Below, piece by piece: positions 27,854 through 42,442 of a DNA stretch of 64,000 nt (positions are counted from its first letter, which is position 1; every line of letters begins with the position of its first letter). The notes under the pieces are model-generated. The model was not told the DNA's origin and ran no database searches. It saw only the letters and a list, made by a program, of their open reading frames with translations. A program made the position numbers and the translations under genes. Source of the DNA: Syntrophales bacterium (GTDB lineage Bacteria; Desulfobacterota; Syntrophia; Syntrophales; PHBD01); contig OY764159.1 of NCBI GenBank assembly GCA_963668175.1, positions 1,920,001-1,984,000 on the forward strand, given 5' to 3'.

Positions 27854-27908
27854 GCCTGCGTGCCCCCTGCATAGGGGGTTCAAAACCGAGTTTTTCACAA
27901 GCTGTTAG
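27854..27908. repeat. Partial MITE-like copy (right end)
   Basis: Near-identical to 40789-40844: GCCTGCGTGCCCCCTGCATAGGGGGTTCAAAA..GAGTTTTT..CAAGCTGTTAG. Confidence 0.75.
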
Positions 27909-27974
27909 AAGGACCGTTCCGTTCGCGCGGGCGCGGGACCGGGAGACCAAAGACCCAGGGAGGAGCGGGAAGCC

Positions 27975-31795: not shown

Positions 31796-31808
31796 CCCGC
31801 CTCCCTGT

Positions 31809-31859
31809 GGGCTGTTGAAAAACACCCGTCTGCGGTGCGTGCCCCCTGCATAGGGGGTT
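31809..31859. repeat. Partial/deleted MITE-like copy
   Basis: Left IR GGCTGTTGAAAAAC joined to TGCGTGCCCCCTGCATAGGGGGTT. Confidence 0.7.
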
Positions 31860-34033: not shown

Positions 34034-35857
34034 CTAAAAATCGTCGTCCAGCGGCAATTCGGGTTGGCGTGGCCGGACGGATTTTTCTTTTCCCCGCGCC
34101 GGCGGCGCTGCATCGAGGACCGCATCCCGGGTGACGACCGCACCGGTATTGCCGCCCAGGACCAGGGACGACATATCCAGCACCATACCCTTCATCGTCG
34201 CGGCCTGGGAGGACAGCTCCTCGGCCGCCGCCGCCGATTCCTCGGCGCTGGCCGCCGTGTCCTGGACGACCTTGTCCATGGCGGATACGGCCTTGTTGAT
34301 CTGGTCGATCCCCTGGGATTGTTCCTGGGAAGCCGTCGCGATCTCGTCGACGAGGCTGCCGACCTTGCCGGCGATCTCCACGTTCTCCTTGAATATCTCC
34401 TGCGTCTGCGTGGTCAGCTCGTTGCTCTTGCGCACAACCTTGATCGTGTTCTCGATCAGCACGGTCGTGTTCTTGGCGGCATCCGCCGCGCGCATGGCGA
34501 GGTTCCTCACTTCCTCGGCGACCACGGCGAAACCCGCCCCGGCTTCCCCCGCCCGGGCCGCTTCCACGGCGGCGTTCAGGGCGAGGAGATTCGTCTGGAA
34601 GGCGATCTCGTCGATCGTCCTGACGATCTTCGACGTCTCTTCGCTGGTCTTGGTCACTTCCTGGATGGCCGATGCCATATCGGTCATACGGTCGTTGACT
34701 TTGGAGACGATGGCCCTTGTTTCCGCCATCAGCGATTTGGCGGCTACGGCGTTCTCGGCGTTGCGCTTCGTCATGGAGGACATCTCTTCCAGCGACGACG
34801 AGGTCTCCTCGATGGCGGAGGCCTGCTGCGCGGCGCCGTCGGCCAGGGACTGGCTCGTCATGGCGACCTCGGAAGAAGCGGAGGCCACCTGATCGGCGCC
34901 CGCGTCGAGACCGCCGGATATCCTTGTGATCGGCCCGACGACGGATCGGACGATGAGAATGAGCAGGGCCATCAGAACGGCCACGCCGCCGACCAGGAGG
35001 ACCAGATTAACGACGGTCATCCGGTTCGCCGCGGCGAGCACTTCACTCGTGGGCGCCACCACCAGCACGGTCCATCCTACGTTCCGGCAGGGGTATAAAT
35101 AGGCCGTCCTCTTCGTATTCTGAAAGGTGTAGCTGATTTGTCCCTGCTTCTGCTTCATCATCTCCCGGCCGAACTCCTGATCCTTCAGGTTCAGTTTCAT
35201 GATCAGGCTCTTGTCCTTGTGGGCGAAGACAAGCCCGGTCTCTTCGTACAGGGCGACGTAGCCGGTGGTGAATACCTTCGCCCCCTCCACGAGACTCTCG
35301 CTGAACTTCACCAGATCCGGCACGCCGACCAGGACGCCGATCACCCGGTCGCCGTCCGTGATGGGCGAGGCGATGGCCAGGGACGCTTGACCGGTGGTGC
35401 GGGAGAGATAGACCTCGGAGACGTTGGTCTCGCCCTTCATGGCCTTCTGGAAGTAGGCCCGGTCCGGGACCTTGACCTTGCCGATGGCATCCGGCATCGA
35501 CGATGCGACGACATTGCCTTGCTGGTCGGCGATATTGAAGTAGGCGAACCCCGAGGTGGCCTTGACGATTTCAGCCATGGCGGCGTTCGCGATGCCCACC
35601 GACTTTTCGTCCCCCGATTTCAGGACGTTCCTGAAGACGTCCCGCGGGGCCTGCGTACGCACCGTGGACATGGCATTGGCCACCCACAGGTCGACCAGGT
35701 TGGCCCTCGCTTCGCCGATCGTCCGGAACATCTCGGTCGCATTGTCGCTGAGCGTCCGGGACGAGATCCAGTAAGTGACGCCCGTGGATACGCCCATGGC
35801 GAGAACGACCAGTAAAAACGTCGGTATCAAAACCCTCTTCTGCAGACTCCAGCGCAT
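34034..35857 (-). CDS. Methyl-accepting chemotaxis protein (dCache), copy 1
   Basis: TM-dCache-[26 protein letters not shown]-terminal LDDDF. Confidence 0.96.
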
Positions 35858-36297
35858 AGAACCTCCTTATTTTCCTGCGGCCGACACATGTGGCTTCCGC
35901 CGGTCGCCGGGGCTCGGCGAAACGGCCCTCCATCTTTTCCACCGCTTCGTGTGTTTCAAATGCGGAATGACGGAAACGCAGGTCAACCGCAAGTTGGCCG
36001 GCGGCATGGGGCCGCCGGGACCTGCTGAATATGATGATGGATAAACGGTTGGTTGATGAACGACGTTCGCTTGTCTACGGCCTTAAGAGAGATTCGGAAA
36101 CAACCGGGGAAAAGTGCGGGGAAAAGCAGGCTTTATATCGCTTCTGGTTGCGCGCGCAAGGGGAACGGGACCGATGCCCTCCTGTTTGTAAAATGGGGTC
36201 CGGCAAGTGCCTCCCCGGTATCGTGACCGACACCGGAAAATGCCGGCAACCGGCTGTCGAGGCGTCCCCCTCCGTGAATCGCCGCTACGTATTTTAA

Positions 36298-36596: not shown

Positions 36597-38420
36597 CTAA
36601 AATTCGTCCCCCCCCGGCAGTGCCTTTTGAGGCGACCGGACGGGTTTTTTCTTGTCCATCTTGGACGGGGCGGCGGGAACGGTCGCATCCCGTGTGACGA
36701 CCGCACCGGTATTGCCGCCCAGGACCAGGGACGACATATCCACCACCATGCCCTTCATCGTCGCGGCCTGGGAGGACAGCTCCTCGGCCGCCGCCGCCGA
36801 TTCCTCGGCGCTGGCCGCCGTGTCCTGGACGACCTTGTCCATGGCGGATACGGCCTTGTTGATCTGGTCGATCCCCTGGGACTGTTCCTGGGAGGCCGAC
36901 GCGATCTCGTCGACGAGGCCGCCGACCTTGCCCGCGATCTCCACGTTCTCCTTGAATATCTCCTGCGTCTGCGTGGTCAGCTCGTTGCTCTTCCGCACGA
37001 CCTTGATCGTGTTCTCGATCAGCACGGTCGTATTCCTGGCAGCGTCGGCCGCCCGCATGGCGAGGTTCCTCACTTCCTCGGCGACGACGGCGAAGCCCGC
37101 CCCGGCCTCCCCCGCCCGGGCCGCTTCCACGGCGGCGTTCAGGGCGAGGAGGTTTGTCTGGAAGGCGATCTCGTCGATCGTCTTGACGATCTTCGACGTC
37201 TCTTCGCTGGTCTTGGTCACCTCCTGGATAGCGGCGGCCATACCGGTCATATGGTCGTTGACTTTGGACACAATGGCCCTCGTCTCCGCCATCAGTTCCT
37301 TGGCGGCGCTGGCGTTCTCGGCGTTGCGCTTCGTCATGGAGGACATCTCCTCCAGCGACGACGAGGTCTCCTCGATGGCGGAGGCCTGCTGTGCGGCGCC
37401 GTCGGCCAGGGACTGGCTCGTCGTGGCGACCTCGGATGAGGCCGACGCCACCTGATCGGCGCCCGCGTCGAGACCGCCGGATATCCTCGTGATCGGACCG
37501 ACGACGGATCGGACGATGATAATGAGCAGGGCCATCAGGACGGCCACGCCGCCGACCAGGAGAACCAGGTTGACGACGGTCATCCGGTTCGCCGCGGCGA
37601 GCACTTCACTCGTGGGCGCCGCTGCCAGCACGGTCCATCCCACAATCCGGCAGGGGTATATATAGGCCGTCTGCTTCGCGCCCTGAAAGGTGTAGCTGAT
37701 CTGGCCCTGCTTCAGCTTCATCATCTCGCGGCCGAACTCCTGATCCTTCAGGTTCAGCTTCATGATCTGACTCTTGTCCTTGTGGGCGAAGACGAGGCCG
37801 GTCTCTTCGTACAGGGCGACGTAGCCCGTCGTGAAGACCTTGGCCTTGTCTACGAGACTCTCGCCGAATTTCGTCAGGTCCGGCACGCCGATCAGTACGC
37901 CGATCACCCTGTCGCCGTCCTTGATGGGAGAGGCGAGGGCCAGGGACGCCTGCCCGGTGGTGCGGGAAAGAAATACGCTGGAGACGTTGGTCTGCCCCTT
38001 CAAGGCCTTCTGGAAATACTCCCGGTCGGGAACCTTGATCTTGCCGACGGCATCCTTCACGCCCGAAGCGATGATGTCCCCCTTCGGATCGGCAACATGG
38101 AAATAGGCGAAGGCCGAGGATATCTTGGCAAGTTCGACCATGGCGGCATTCGCGGCGGCGACGTTGTGTTCGTCCCCGGATTTCAGGACGGTTTTAAAGA
38201 TATCCCGCGTCGATGCCGCAATCATCGTTTCCGTGGCATCGTTCACCCACAGGTCGACGAGATTGGCCCTGGCCTCGCCGATGGTCCTCAGTATCTCTGA
38301 CGCATTGTCGTTGAGCGCCCGGGACGACATCCAGTAAGTGACTCCCGTGGAAATGCCCATGGCGAGAACGACGAGTAAGAATGTTGGTATTAAAACCCTT
38401 TTTTGCAGACTCCAGCGCAT
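36597..38420 (-). CDS. Methyl-accepting chemotaxis protein (dCache), copy 2
   Basis: Tandem paralogue of identical length (607 aa). Confidence 0.96.
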
Positions 38421-38868
38421 AGAACCTCCTTCTATTCTTACGGCCGGTACAGCCTGTTCCGTCGATCGTCAGGTCTCGACGAAAGAATGCCCCCCCTCTT
38501 CTCCACCGCTTTGACGCGCCTTTGGCAGGCACGCCCCTGATACGGAATGTCAGAGATGCATCATAGCCGTATATCGGCCGGCGGCGGAAAGCCGCCGGGA
38601 CCGGCTTACGTTATGTTTGATTAACGGTTGATTGATTCATGGCGATCGCTTGCTTGCCGCCCGAAGAGAGATTCGGGAAAACCGGGGTAAGTTGCGGGGA
38701 TAAACGGCCCTTGTCTCGCTACCGGCTGAGCGTTTGCAGGATCTATACTCTCCTTTCGCTGTTTGTATCCGACAGGGCCTCTCCGGTGCTGAAACGAACG
38801 CCGGAAGATGCGCAATGCCGGATGTTGGCGCGTCCCGCCCCTCAATCGGGAACGCAGCTACTGTGCCT

Positions 38869-38898: not shown

Positions 38899-39076
38899 GA
38901 AGAATAAAAGTGTAGGGTTTTTCAGACGCTTTATGGGCGGGCCTTTCCGGCTTTTCGCAGCGCTATTACCGCGTGGATACAGGGCTGCGACGGGCGAGAG
39001 GAAAGGAAAAGGGCGCCATCCCGTCCGGCAACCGGCGCCCTTCAAGGGGTTAAAAAAGTATGCTCCGGGAAACGCT

Positions 39077-40387
39077 TTAGGAGGCCCGCGTCGCCGTCCC
39101 GGCATTCGTCACATTCTCTGAGGGGTTCATGGCGGCGGCTGGCAGGTCCGGATGTTTGGCTTCCGGCGGCAGGCGGAGGCCGCGCGAGGGGATGACGCCG
39201 CCCTGCATCCGCCTTATCTGGCGGACGGCCTGGCGGATGCGTTCTTCGTTTTCCACCAGGGCGATGCGGAGCCAACCCTCGCCCTCCGGCCCGAAGCCGA
39301 TGCCCGGCGCGACGACGACGTTGGCCTCCTCGATGAGCCTGATGGAGTAATCCATGGAGCCCATGGCCCGGTAAGGCTCCGGGATCTCGGCCCAGACGAA
39401 CATGGAGGCCTTTGGCTTCTCCACGGTCCAGCCGATGGCGGCGAGTCCGTCGCAGAGGCAGTCGCGGCGGCTCTCGTAAATGGCCGCCTGCCCGCCGATG
39501 AAGTCGTCGCAGTCCCGGACGGCGATGATCGCCGCGATCTGGACGGCCTGGAAGAGGCCGTAGTCGTAATAGCCCTTGATCTTCCCCAGGGCCTCGACGA
39601 TCCGCGGGTGCCCGGCGCAGTAGCCTACGCGCCATCCCGCCATGTTGTAGCTCTTGGAGAGGGTGCCGAACTCGACGCCGACGTCCTTCGCGCCTTTCGC
39701 CTGGAGGAAGCTCGGGGCCTCGTAGCCGTCGAAGGTCACGCGGCCGTAGGCATGGTCGTGGACGACGATGAGCTTGCGGCGCTTCGCGATCCTCACCATC
39801 TCCTCGAAGAAGGCGAGATCGACGGTCTTCGTCGTCGGGTTGTGGGGATAGTTCAGCATGATCGCCTTCGGCGCCGGCGTGAGCGTGCGGCAGAGGTCGT
39901 CCACGCTCTGCAGGAAGGCTTCGTCTTCGACGATGGGGACGCGGACGATGGAGGCCCCGGCGATCGTGCACGAATAGATATGGATGGGGAAGGCGGGCAC
40001 GGGGACGAGGGCGGTGTCGCCCGGCCCGAGCAGGACGAGCGACAAATGGGAGACGCCCTCTTTGGAGCCGATGGTGCAGAGGATTTCGCCCGCGGGGTCC
40101 AGGGAGACGCCGTAATGCCTCTCGTAGTAGCGGCCGATCTCGCGCCTCAGGTTGTAGATCCCCGAGGCCACGGAGTACCGGTGGTTCCGCGGGTCGTTCA
40201 CGACCTCGCAGAGCTTGTCCACGACGGGCTGCGGCGTCGGGTCGCTGGGGTTGCCCATGGCGAAATCGATCATGTCGATCCCCGCCTTCCTCTTCTCCAG
40301 TTTGATCTTATTGAGCCGCCCGAAGAGATAGGGCGGCAGCATGTCCATGCGGTCTGAAAATGTTACGAAGTCTTCTGTATCGTTCAT
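39077..40387 (-). CDS. alaC: Alanine (glutamate-pyruvate) aminotransferase, class I PLP
   Basis: LPPYLF, MGNP, TIGSKEG, PIHIY, TLSKSYNMAGWR, DYG, PKASMFVWA, PGIGFG, ENEERIRQA all match AlaC/YfdZ as recalled; CAGGAG RBS. LL-DAP aminotransferase is the nearest alternative. Confidence 0.82.
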   Translation of the reverse strand: MNDTEDFVTFSDRMDMLPPYLFGRLNKIKLEKRKAGIDMIDFAMGNPSDPTPQPVVDKLCEVVNDPRNHRYSVASGIYNLRREIGRYYERHYGVSLDPAGEILCTIGSKEGVSHLSLVLLGPGDTALVPVPAFPIHIYSCTIAGASIVRVPIVEDEAFLQSVDDLCRTLTPAPKAIMLNYPHNPTTKTVDLAFFEEMVRIAKRRKLIVVHDHAYGRVTFDGYEAPSFLQAKGAKDVGVEFGTLSKSYNMAGWRVGYCAGHPRIVEALGKIKGYYDYGLFQAVQIAAIIAVRDCDDFIGGQAAIYESRRDCLCDGLAAIGWTVEKPKASMFVWAEIPEPYRAMGSMDYSIRLIEEANVVVAPGIGFGPEGEGWLRIALVENEERIRQAVRQIRRMQGGVIPSRGLRLPPEAKHPDLPAAAMNPSENVTNAGTATRAS

Positions 40388-40464
40388 GGCCGTTGTTCTC
40401 CTGAAAAATCGTCCCTCCGTTCGCCTGCCCTTTCGCCGCCGGAGGGGGGCGGGGAGAGGAAATG

Positions 40465-40495
40465 AAAAAAGCCCCGGACATATGCCGCCCGGGGC
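40465..40495 (-). terminator. Attenuator terminator in the alaC leader
   Basis: GCCCCGG-GCGGCATATGT-CCGGGGC-TTTTTT, about 78 nt before the alaC ATG. Confidence 0.88.
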
Positions 40496-40566
40496 CCTGA
40501 AAGCAGGAAGGCCATGGACGGCACGAATGCGACCGCCCATGGCCTTTGATGTCTTATGTGAAAAAG

Positions 40567-40653
40567 TTACAGGAAGGCATCACCAGCCATGGGCGGAAGA
40601 GCCCTGGCGGCCGCTGCTGCCGCTGCGAAATGGATCGTTCCCGTAACGTTCAT
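40567..40653 (-). CDS. Ala-rich leader peptide (28 aa; not in ORF track)
   Basis: MNVTGTIHFAAAAAAARALPPMAGDAFL*; Ala codons GCA GCG GCA GCA GCG GCC GCC; AAGAAAGG RBS. Confidence 0.85.
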   Translation of the reverse strand: MNVTGTIHFAAAAAAARALPPMAGDAFL

Positions 40654-40665
40654 CTCATGCCTTTC

Positions 40666-40844
40666 TTAGCAGGCTGTTGAAAAACGCCCATCTGTCGCGT
40701 TGCGCTGCAAGCCGCGTCAATCGACATACTTCTATGTATGCCTCATTCCTTGGCTTTTGCGCGCCTTACATCTGGACATTTTTGAACAGCCTGCGTGCCC
40801 CCTGCATAGGGGGTTCAAAAGCGAGTTTTTCCACAAGCTGTTAG
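40666..40844. mobile_element. MITE-like non-autonomous element
   Basis: TTAG at both ends; imperfect terminal IRs CAGGCTGTTGAAAAAC / GTTTTTCCACAAGCTG; internal IR copy TTTTTGAACAGCCTGC; CCCCCTGCATAGGGGG hairpin; two further partial copies in the window. Confidence 0.75.
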
Positions 40845-40857
40845 AGTAACTTACAAT

Positions 40858-40886: not shown

Positions 40887-41105
40887 TTTTTTTGTGACGG
40901 CGACAAGACGCGGCGGAATGGCACGTGCTGATGACCCGTGCCCAAGTCTTGCTTGCGTTGCCGTGTACACCTACAAGTCGATGACTTTGTAAATCTTTGA
41001 GAATAATGAACATCAGTAGAAATGTTAATCTAACGTCATCGATATTCTATTTTTGCAACGCATTCTTTTTTATATATATCTTCAGATCATGTTATTGGAT
41101 AGCTT

Positions 41106-42092
41106 TCATTTTACGGTAGATTGACAATTGGTTATGTTTTCAATTGCAGCCTTGATTTCATGCTCTGCCTCATTCCATTGATTATCCCAAGTTACCCTTG
41201 AATCCGCACTAAATGCCTCTGAAGCGAGCAGTTGAATCGATTTTAGTTGTTCTTTTAAAGCCGATATAATCTTTTCTCTGTTCGTCGCAGACATGAAACA
41301 AGGGGCAAACGAATCGCCTGTGTATCCATTGCCCAAAATGCTAACAACAGAACGTACTGTTTCAACTCTCTTTAATCCCTTGAATAGCTTGTCTAGATTA
41401 CGCTCTAAAGGTTTTATGTAGAGATCGCCCTCAGAATCATTAGATGTATAAAAGCTGCTAAGTGAATATCCAGCACTTGCTCTTACCTCTGAATTCGGAT
41501 CATTCGCTATTATATTGATTATCATGGGCACGAAGCGATTTGGCTTACCCCTTAGGAAAAATGCTGCCGTCTCCCTGACAGCGGGAGACTTATCTTTTAA
41601 CCCAAGCTCATTGTATTTATCCCTATCCTCACGCAACTGAAGATTGATTTTATGTAAGGCTTCTTGCCTAGCTTTTCCTGTTTTTCCATGAATGAACTTT
41701 ACAGTCTGGTCTTTAGCCGTAGATGGATCAACTTTTAGGTAGACGCAATAAACGCTGTAATTGTCTGACAAAGCTTTTTGTGCGTCGTCGTATAATTTTA
41801 CTCCGATACTTTCGTTAAACGTCTGACCACGTTCTATCCTGACAAATTTAAATTCGCATTTTGATGATGGTCTTCTAAGTTCAATAACTGAATATTCGCT
41901 TTCTGAACGGATTATTTTGTATGATGCCTTTTTGCATTCCTCTATACTTATTTTGTCTTTATCAAGAACAATGAATGATGACTGGCAGCCTCGTGAAAAG
42001 CCTTGATAGACGCCAAAGAAGGTATCCGTTGATCCTGCATAACAGGTAAGAGGCATGAAAACCAAACAACAAAAGATAATGTATTTTTTCAT
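41106..42092 (-). CDS. AT-rich exported protein with HEAT-like repeats
   Basis: Signal peptide MKKYIIFCCLVFMPLTCYA; LKDKSPAVRETAA and NDPNSEVRASAG repeats. Confidence 0.7.
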   Translation of the reverse strand: MKKYIIFCCLVFMPLTCYAGSTDTFFGVYQGFSRGCQSSFIVLDKDKISIEECKKASYKIIRSESEYSVIELRRPSSKCEFKFVRIERGQTFNESIGVKLYDDAQKALSDNYSVYCVYLKVDPSTAKDQTVKFIHGKTGKARQEALHKINLQLREDRDKYNELGLKDKSPAVRETAAFFLRGKPNRFVPMIINIIANDPNSEVRASAGYSLSSFYTSNDSEGDLYIKPLERNLDKLFKGLKRVETVRSVVSILGNGYTGDSFAPCFMSATNREKIISALKEQLKSIQLLASEAFSADSRVTWDNQWNEAEHEIKAAIENITNCQSTVK

Positions 42093-42442
42093 GGCAATAC
42101 TCTTATTAACGCTGATCGAAGATTTCCATAAACAGACTTGAAGCATTTCGTTGGTTGCAGATGAAATATCCTTTACTCATGAAAGACTGAAAATTCAATA
42201 GCAAAAAATATTAGCAAAAATATTAGAGTGCTGTTTCGGAATGGACTGAATTAGCAAGAGACTCAGTGCATGGCTATTTAAGAATACTATTTGAAAGGTT
42301 CTACGCCAGTTGTTAAACCATGTTTATTGAGTATAGGAAGAAAGTAATGAATGTGCCATCGCCGCCGCAATCGCTGTCAAGGTTATCCCGCTTAAAGAAA
42401 ACGCGGACGTTCCTTGCTCCGGCCTGCCGGCCCCGCTTCTCC

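Follow-up and report, generated by a model that had tools for sequence, protein, structure and literature searches.

A candidate alanine-codon attenuator conserved upstream of an AlaC-like aminotransferase gene in Desulfobacterota

Results

An alanine-rich leader with alternative helices

The subject of this study is a putative transcription attenuator in the leader of a gene for an AlaC-like class I/II aminotransferase, encoded within a 64,000-nucleotide (nt) stretch of the Syntrophales bacterium contig OY764159.1 (henceforth the window, numbered from its first letter). The gene (39077-40387, on the minus strand like all leader features below) encodes a protein of 436 residues and has an AGGAG motif (40402-40398) 10 nt upstream. 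Along the minus strand, the gene is preceded in order by a Shine-Dalgarno-like tract, a short upstream open reading frame (uORF), a hairpin (A), a small hairpin and an intrinsic terminator (B). The Shine-Dalgarno-like sequence AAGAAAGG (40660-40667) lies 6 nt 5' of the ATG of the uORF, whose 28 codons plus stop (40567-40653) specify the 28-residue peptide MNVTGTIHFAAAAAAARALPPMAGDAFL. This peptide holds 10 alanines altogether, seven of them consecutive, and we propose the run of seven Ala codons (codons 10-16, 40606-40626) as the sensor of the device and as a possible segment 0. We number the further segments as 1 (inside the uORF), 2 and 3 (the arms of hairpin A) and 4 and 5 (the arms of terminator B). 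Segment 1 (40585-40596, with CCGCCCAUGGC at 40586-40596) is found 12 nt past the first base of the last codon of the run; segment 2, AAGGCCAUGGGCGG (40533-40546), is the left arm of hairpin A; and segment 3 (40508-40524, with CCGUCCAUGGCCUU at 40508-40521) is its right arm as well as the 5' strand of a predicted antiterminator. Segment 4 (40482-40498) spans the left arm and loop of terminator B and is the part that the antiterminator would take up. Terminator B itself (40465-40495) has a 10-bp stem (40495-40486/40480-40471), the loop GCAUA and a tail of six U residues (40470-40465); a consensus scan places it at 40498-40468 plus tail, with 13 pairs, and 77 nt separate it from the aminotransferase gene. 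An earlier note on this DNA had described the ribosome-binding site, the alanine-rich uORF of 28 residues, the segments with their coordinates and complementarities, and the terminator, all of which we could confirm on the minus strand.

The minimum free energy (MFE) fold of the leader (40680-40388) consists of hairpin A and terminator B, with a z-score of -4.3 and none of 200 shuffled sequences equally stable. Each segment can also be paired with its other neighbor: the predicted duplex energies are -26.4 kcal/mol for 1:2 (12 bp), -29.5 for 2:3, -27.2 for 3:4 and -23.7 for 4:5, and for each of the four, none of 200 shuffles of the partner region matched the observed energy. The 3:4 helix joins GUGCCGUCC (40524-40516) to GGGCGGCAU (40490-40482) and is extended by GGCCUU (40513-40508) with AGGGCC (40498-40493). 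The summed energies of the two states, 1:2 with 3:4 and 2:3 with 4:5, are nearly equal (-53.6 vs -53.2 kcal/mol), and therefore the decision between them must be kinetic, as is also typical of classical attenuators. The MFE fold includes an additional G+C-rich hairpin followed by five U residues between terminator B and the start of the aminotransferase gene (about 40460-40404); it lies outside the conserved model described below and is not among the results of the terminator scan.

The device recurs at orthologous loci

We scanned genomes for orthologues of the aminotransferase, and all locus counts given here refer to the 80 loci among the matches listed. An Ala-run uORF, hairpin A and terminator B are present immediately 5' of the aminotransferase gene at 12 of the 80, and all 12 carriers belong to the Desulfobacterota (Syntrophales, Syntrophobacteraceae, Desulfococcus, Desulfatitalea and Desulfosarcina). 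Together with the window they form the set of 13 sequences used throughout. Only two of the loci listed are close to the window, L001 (73% identity) and L002 (76%), while the other 78 are at 49-61% identity, and the Syntrophales subtype therefore rests on three sequences. Hairpin A and the terminator occur at the same place in both close relatives, behind the uORFs MKFTEIIRQTAIAAARAKMPVACCEL (L001) and MFSVITMQAAAAARAKRPMACGGSL (L002). The more distant carriers include L017 from Desulforhabdus sp. TSK (uORF MNAAAAAARKTAWATVGDVTKP), L005 from Desulfococcus, L015 and L020 from Syntrophobacteraceae, L024, L040 and, from Desulfosarcina cetonica JCM 12296, L048. That the device recurs at 12 other loci shows it to be more than chance.

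A covariance model built from 12 sequences was then run on 81 sources, the 80 loci and the window. It returned 13 matches of 80-124 bits, and the next best match reached at most 20.8 bits. The Desulfatitalea locus L042 (uORF MKYTIGAAAAARSTARAEGGD), which was outside the model seed, scored 103.9 bits. All 13 matches are located immediately 5' of the aminotransferase gene and on the same strand; the distance from the end of the terminator to the aminotransferase match is 21-63 nt in 10 of the 11 loci measured and 244 nt in L040, and the stretch between the Ala run and the terminator end measures 142-159 nt in the relatives, compared with 162 nt in the window. A search for sense-strand uORFs with at least four consecutive Ala codons pointed to the same loci, with hits at 10 of the 80, all positive with the model, and at none of the 68 model-negative loci; four antisense hits of this kind are the reverse complements of those same sense-strand runs. 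The runs of L001 and L020 have three codons. Three-Ala runs also occur in uORF-like long frames of five model-negative loci (L021, L065, L071, L078 and L079), and we took these for chance.

The RNA matched no Rfam family. Searches of Rfam with the window region at E-values up to 10 gave sub-threshold, terminator-driven hits to small RNAs (sRNAs) alone, for example Spot_42 with 22.7 bits vs a gathering score of 80, and the 12 relatives gave no match at gathering score. In the window and the 12 relatives alike, no Rfam leader family was matched, be it His_leader, Trp_leader, Leu_leader, Thr_leader, Phe_leader or others.

Two mutually exclusive folds are maintained

For the comparison of structures we relied on a model-fitted alignment (A3), which was preferred to a MAFFT alignment (A1) because A1 misaligned the right arm of the terminator. 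Duplex prediction for each sequence separately recovered the 1:2, 2:3, 3:4 and 4:5 helices in 13 of 13 sequences and in the same alignment columns. In the terminator state (2:3 with 4:5), 89.0% of the cells are paired and 12 of 26 pairs are changed on both sides, compared with 30-52% paired in slid controls, although A3 was fitted to this state and its counts therefore lean toward it. The antiterminator state (1:2 with 3:4), which was not used in fitting A3, likewise has 89.0% of its cells paired and 10 of 20 pairs changed on both sides (slid controls 22-46%). For each of the two states, the covariation score was reached by none of 500 shuffles. The 1:2 helix corresponds to columns 28-39 with 90-102 of A3, and the 3:4 helix to columns 117-126 with 146-155, where 92.7% of cells are paired and five of nine pairs are doubly changed; at columns 119:153, for example, the pair is CG in seven sequences, UA in five and UG in one. 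Terminator B, comprising the 4:5 helix and its U tract, is found in all 13 sequences, and 6 of its 12 pairs have changes on both sides. Thus, both of the exclusive folds have been maintained, with strands 2, 3 and 4 common to the two, and this is the hallmark of an attenuator. The earlier note had suggested examining the regions 5' of alaC orthologues from Desulfobacterota for conserved poly-Ala uORFs and for helices that covary; both are there, at the 12 loci as in the window, and the two antiterminator-state pairings that it had proposed, of segment 1 with segment 2 and of segment 3 with the left arm of the terminator, are the ones conserved in register.

At least four U residues occur in the 8 nt after column 129 of hairpin A in 8 of the 13 sequences; the corresponding tract of the window, CCUGCUUU, is a poor U tract. 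Because of this U run behind hairpin A in most relatives, the family looks like a tandem of two terminators with one antiterminator apiece: hairpin A would probably act as the first terminator (T1), opposed by 1:2, ahead of a second (T2) opposed by 3:4. A further helix, pairing the Ala run with segment 1 and thus a candidate protector, is part of every single-sequence MFE fold; its own median z is -1.7. As a fixed-register element we set it aside as unsupported: 63.5% of its cells were paired, a value that 85 of 500 shuffles also reached, and there was no covariation.

The leader peptide carries a coding signature

The uORFs of the 12 carrier loci have 15-27 codons, compared with 28 in the window. 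All 13 sequences preserve the start codon, the frame and the stop codon, yet the peptides share neither sequence nor length in their N-terminal portions. Purine tracts resembling a Shine-Dalgarno sequence stand 5' of most of the uORFs. The Ala runs comprise 3-7 codons, with at least four in 11 of the 13 sequences. Within the run, G and C are nearly invariant at codon positions 1 and 2 of A3 and position 3 is variable, with an entropy of 1.1-1.8 bits at three of five codons. The run is retained in L001 despite a leader of 43% G+C. The variation at the third position, the kept frame and the low G+C content of this leader together argue for selection on alanine codons, and not on a G+C-rich RNA element alone. 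The residue immediately after the Ala run is Arg in 8 of the 13 peptides (codon 17 in the window, 40605-40603).

The spacing of these elements is also regular. Segment 1 is 21 nt from the first codon of the Ala run in 8 of 13 sequences (range 15-30) and 9-12 nt from the last codon in 11 of 13. Between the end of segment 1 and the stop codon there are 12-15 nt in 10 of 13, and segment 2 begins 15-45 nt past the stop codon. With this geometry, a ribosome on the early Ala codons would leave segment 1 bare, whereas an advancing ribosome would cover it.

We modelled the effect of a ribosome by masked folding. In full-length leaders, the terminator state is favored at equilibrium in most sequences. 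In transcripts cut before segment 5 and masked over 30 nt around the second Ala codon, the 3:4 helix had a probability above 0.5 in 7 of 13 sequences, compared with 1 of 13 both in the absence of a ribosome and with one placed at the stop codon.

The downstream gene encodes an AlaC-like aminotransferase

The aminotransferase matches a single Pfam family, PF00155 (Aminotran_1_2). Among 69 NCBIfam families, the alanine transaminase family NF006033 comes out on top with 512.5 bits vs a cut-off of 647 bits, and models for LL-diaminopimelate (LL-DAP) aminotransferases come next with 471-436 bits. Given a score under the cut-off and LL-DAP models close behind, "AlaC-like" is a best-hit label and not a demonstrated function. 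Close relatives of the enzyme (70-96% identity) are from Syntrophales, and some are named "alanine-synthesizing transaminase" by JGI; the nearest chain in the PDB, 2x5d, is an uncharacterised "probable aminotransferase" and is uninformative on the substrate. The enzyme presumably makes alanine. The window protein has a C-terminal tail of about 40 residues (39077-39200, minus strand) that is missing from most relatives: these have 403-410 residues and cover 90-91% of the query, and P0001 alone also has 436.

A terminator-like hairpin lies 3' of the gene on the same strand (39003-39042). The consensus scan lists its inner part (39030-39014), and a longer stem, AAGGGCGCC/GGCGCCCUU, was recognized by eye. 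Its position after the gene suggests that the aminotransferase transcription unit is monocistronic.

The leader falls within one clade of the loci listed

In a quick maximum-likelihood tree of the 81 enzymes, the carriers form the basal branches of a single Desulfobacterota clade of 29 rows. The leader label requires three changes on this tree, compared with a mean of 12.2 for shuffled labels, and none of 500 shuffles was as low. Two nested clades are without the leader, one of 11 Desulfobacteraceae rows and one of 5 Desulfocapsaceae-like rows, and the simplest reading of this distribution is one gain and two losses. The Desulfobacteraceae and Desulfocapsaceae-like orthologues appear to have lost the leader secondarily. 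In 15 non-carriers (L003, L004, L006, L008-L011, L013, L014, L016, L018, L019, L021, L025 and L056), the region 5' of the gene is A+T-rich and holds no such uORF or hairpins; L007, with just 143 nt upstream, was excluded from this judgement. The 52 rows outside the clade, which come from Poribacteria, Planctomycetota, Acidobacteriota, Methylomirabilota, Burkholderiales, a Deferrisomatales (L064) and others, gave no model match above 18.0 bits (best L051, 18.0 bits, E 0.078).

Promoter region and surroundings

A weak candidate for a sigma-70-type promoter was picked out by eye upstream of the window leader, with TTGACA at 40886-40881, a 17-nt spacer and TTTAAT at 40863-40858 (minus strand). It is absent from the list returned by the consensus scan of the window; promoters of the form TTGACA-N17 occur at the corresponding site 5' of the uORFs in L001 and L002. 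Between this candidate promoter and the ribosome-binding site of the leader lie copies of a dispersed short repeat (40669-40845), with inverted arms at 40669-40695, 40768-40794 and 40816-40843. A 57-nt copy of the repeat, 96% identical, is found about 13 kb away (27854-27909), and there are partial copies at 31807-31859. At the place of the repeat, L001 and L002 have about 35-60 nt, and given this short spacing the 5' leader of the window seems to carry a small mobile repeat, which is probably an insertion.

Directly 5' of the leader promoter region, a low-G+C island (about 40900-42300) has 36-41% G+C vs 55-66% around it, and may be foreign DNA. It holds an open reading frame of 346 residues (41106-42146, minus strand) with weak HEAT-repeat matches. 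Farther away, two plus-strand open reading frames (35775-36044 and 38338-38514) have nearly identical first 31 residues. The latter is antisense to the start of a chemotaxis receptor gene (36597-38420), and the shared starts suggest the start of a second, paralogous receptor gene near 36000.

Discussion

An alanine-tuned attenuator as the favored explanation

The structural features of leader-peptide attenuators are all present at this locus: a uORF, a cluster of Ala codons within it, a terminator, and a mutually exclusive antiterminator that reaches into the uORF. Based on these features and their conservation, we consider it quite probable that the leader is a ribosome-mediated, alanine-tuned transcription attenuator that controls the AlaC-like aminotransferase gene. 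By inference, the uORF is translated, the fold depends on stalling, transcription does terminate and alanine serves as the signal. Transcription would start upstream and the 28-codon leader would be translated. When Ala-tRNA is scarce, ribosomes would stall in the Ala run, 9-12 nt short of segment 1, which would leave segment 1 exposed to pair with segment 2. With 1:2 formed, segment 3 would be free to pair with segment 4, that is, with the left arm and loop of the terminator, so that no terminator could form and polymerase would continue into the aminotransferase gene. When Ala-tRNA is plentiful, the ribosome would pass over segment 1, segments 2 and 3 would form hairpin A, itself followed by a U run and terminator-like in most relatives, segments 4 and 5 would form terminator B, and transcription would end. 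The stall and read-through logic set out in the earlier note is thus borne out as far as the conservation of both alternative folds goes, and needs amending in one respect, since a 2:3 hairpin with a U run in most relatives adds a first terminator to the scheme.

Several observations weigh against this explanation. The 1:2/3:4 structure was derived from the same sequences on which it was scored, and these are just 13 related sequences whose shared descent inflates the counts. In the full-length window leader at equilibrium, the terminator state dominates under any mask, with P(2:3) of 0.97-0.98 and P(4:5) of 0.82-0.83, and it also dominates in 4 of the 13 truncated leaders with a stalled ribosome. 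Antiterminator pairings appear in the MFE fold of the window for some stalls, with 1:2 for the A site at codon 10 and 1:2 plus 3:4 at codon 13, but not at codons 11 and 16, and the switch must therefore be kinetic. The masked folding that had been proposed as a check was compatible with the switch but short of decisive, being favorable in 7 of 13 cut transcripts and unfavorable in most full-length leaders, the window included. A ribosome at the stop codon would barely reach segment 1, whose end is 12-15 nt upstream; L005 and L017 have a weak Shine-Dalgarno sequence; and the protector helix, though present in every MFE fold, is unsupported in fixed register. Sixteen Desulfobacterota orthologues are without the leader. 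Finally, the aminotransferase scores under every NCBIfam cut-off with LL-DAP aminotransferase models close behind NF006033, such that the AlaC-type assignment made beforehand holds as the best family match and falls short of a secure one.

Alternative explanations

The same evidence bears on other readings of the locus. The structural logic requires merely that a ribosome be held 5' of segment 1, and the leader could thus be a general translation-stress attenuator in which the antiterminator opens whenever ribosomes slow on the uORF, be it through antibiotics or a lack of any amino acid, and alanine has no specific role as the physiological signal. The whiB7 leader of mycobacteria behaves in this way, its uORF being described as responsive to scarcity of many amino acids (PMC10274678). 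The Ala run is however the sole coding feature conserved in the 13 peptides, whose N-termini are unrelated, and the regulated gene is itself an alanine-type transaminase by its best family match, so we regard this possibility as unlikely. If, on the other hand, the Ala codons mattered as RNA, the GCN repeat would be a structural part of a riboswitch-like or tRNA-binding switch and the open reading frame would be incidental. Third positions almost fixed as C at two codons of the run (A3 columns 15 and 18) and the capacity of the run to pair with segment 1 in every MFE fold are in favor of such an RNA-only switch. Against this stand the three-base periodicity of the conservation, an open frame with its start and stop retained throughout the 13 sequences although the N-termini diverge, the lack of covariation in the run-to-segment 1 helix and the lack of Rfam matches, which together make it very improbable.

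We attach an equally small probability to a separate unit, a small gene or sRNA that has a promoter and terminators to itself and whose peptide or RNA of about 190 nt would act in trans. A leader ending in a terminator would indeed yield a discrete short transcript, and attenuator RNAs are described as able to act in trans, for example rnTrpL and its peptide peTrpL. Yet in every one of the 13 sequences the element stands in fixed position and orientation ahead of this gene, its terminator is in nearly all measured loci within the 21-63 nt reported above of the aminotransferase match, a conserved pairing that consumes the terminator would be purposeless in a free-standing gene, and the peptide is unconserved beyond the Ala run and the part constrained by the RNA. 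The plainest reading, a chance open reading frame in G+C-rich DNA beside an ordinary terminator, can point to the fact that GCN-rich frames are common in G+C-rich sequence and to the three-Ala frames of five model-negative loci. It is hardly credible for a device conserved as a whole in 13 sequences over several orders, with one leader at 43% G+C.

Relation to known leaders

Leader-peptide attenuation, a textbook mechanism, has been described chiefly for Trp, His, Leu, Thr, Phe and Ile/Val, and for Cys in actinobacteria. The classical enterobacterial leaders are trpL, hisL, leuL, thrL, pheL and ilvL, of which hisL is closest in layout to the window device. Like these, the window leader has a short uORF with a codon run for the amino acid of the pathway, and overlapping alternative helices of which one set ends in an intrinsic terminator, with the position of the ribosome proposed to select the fold as it does in them; like the his leader, it has more than four segments, although a his-like protector helix is unsupported in fixed register in the window family. 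It departs from the classical leaders in the amino acid, alanine, in its target, a single transaminase gene, and in its hosts, the Desulfobacterota. Moreover, the stall site of the window family lies 5' of segment 1 and not inside it, there appear to be two tandem terminators, and unlike the leader families of Rfam, the family is without a sequence or model match.

The earlier note had stated that no Ala-codon attenuator was characterised. This statement is out of date, because alanine-tuned uORF attenuation has precedents in the whiB7 "Ala leader" (PMC10274678) and in the predicted alaL (PMC8079986). The uORF in the 5' leader of mycobacterial whiB7 is termed "Ala leader" (Poulton et al., 2023, PMC10274678) and is, as described there, alanine-enriched, with stalling leading to an antiterminator and read-through, much as proposed here; its output also includes more of an alanine aminotransferase, AspC (PMC10274678). 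The route described is indirect, in that the attenuator controls a transcription factor that activates aspC (PMC10274678), whereas the window leader is directly 5' of the transaminase gene. The whiB7 uORF is also longer and of mixed composition, and is reported to sense many amino acids and antibiotics (PMC10274678), in contrast to the 3-7 consecutive Ala codons of the window family. It belongs to Actinobacteria and stands upstream of the gene for the WhiB7 transcription factor, while the window gene encodes a PF00155 aminotransferase. In Streptomyces lividans TK24, Droste et al. predicted alaL upstream of alaS and noted such a leader as undescribed (PMC8079986). Like the window leader, alaL is proposed to be an alanine-dependent leader peptide (22 residues, six of them Ala); unlike it, alaL is a single-genome RNA-seq prediction and precedes a tRNA synthetase gene (PMC8079986). 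Its Ala residues are scattered, with three at the C-terminus, and the passages on alaL describe no conserved alternative helices (PMC8079986). The polycysteine uORF attenuators of mycobacteria resemble the window device in that a codon run for one amino acid controls downstream biosynthetic genes, and differ from it in sensing cysteine and in being leaderless, according to the summary given for them (bioRxiv 10.1101/834739). A search of full-text literature, with subscription journals and supplementary files outside its scope, returned no alanine-run leader before alaC or in Desulfobacterota, and the excerpts of PMC2965389, PMC4833913 and PMC4007540 that name alanine hold no relevant mention.

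Against this background, we think it somewhat more probable than otherwise, judging from sequence comparison, that the leader is the first direct, classical alanine-codon attenuator, and that it represents an ancient RNA family of the Desulfobacterota in which a poly-Ala leader peptide and two tandem terminator/antiterminator pairs couple the charging of Ala-tRNA to transcription of the gene for the alanine-synthesising transaminase of the cell. If true, alanine would become one of the few amino acids that leader-peptide attenuators are known to sense, and the window device would parallel the indirect alanine loop of mycobacteria. As a cis-regulatory RNA family of about 150 nt and 13 members, it would be new and usable for RNA family databases and annotation, and the leader would offer a compact natural alanine-responsive switch. 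It also gives regulatory evidence on what this clade of aminotransferases does, which homology by itself is insufficient to tell from LL-DAP aminotransferases, and, if our reading is correct, would assign a physiological role to the AlaC-like clade and imply that anaerobic syntrophs and sulfate reducers monitor their charged tRNA-Ala.

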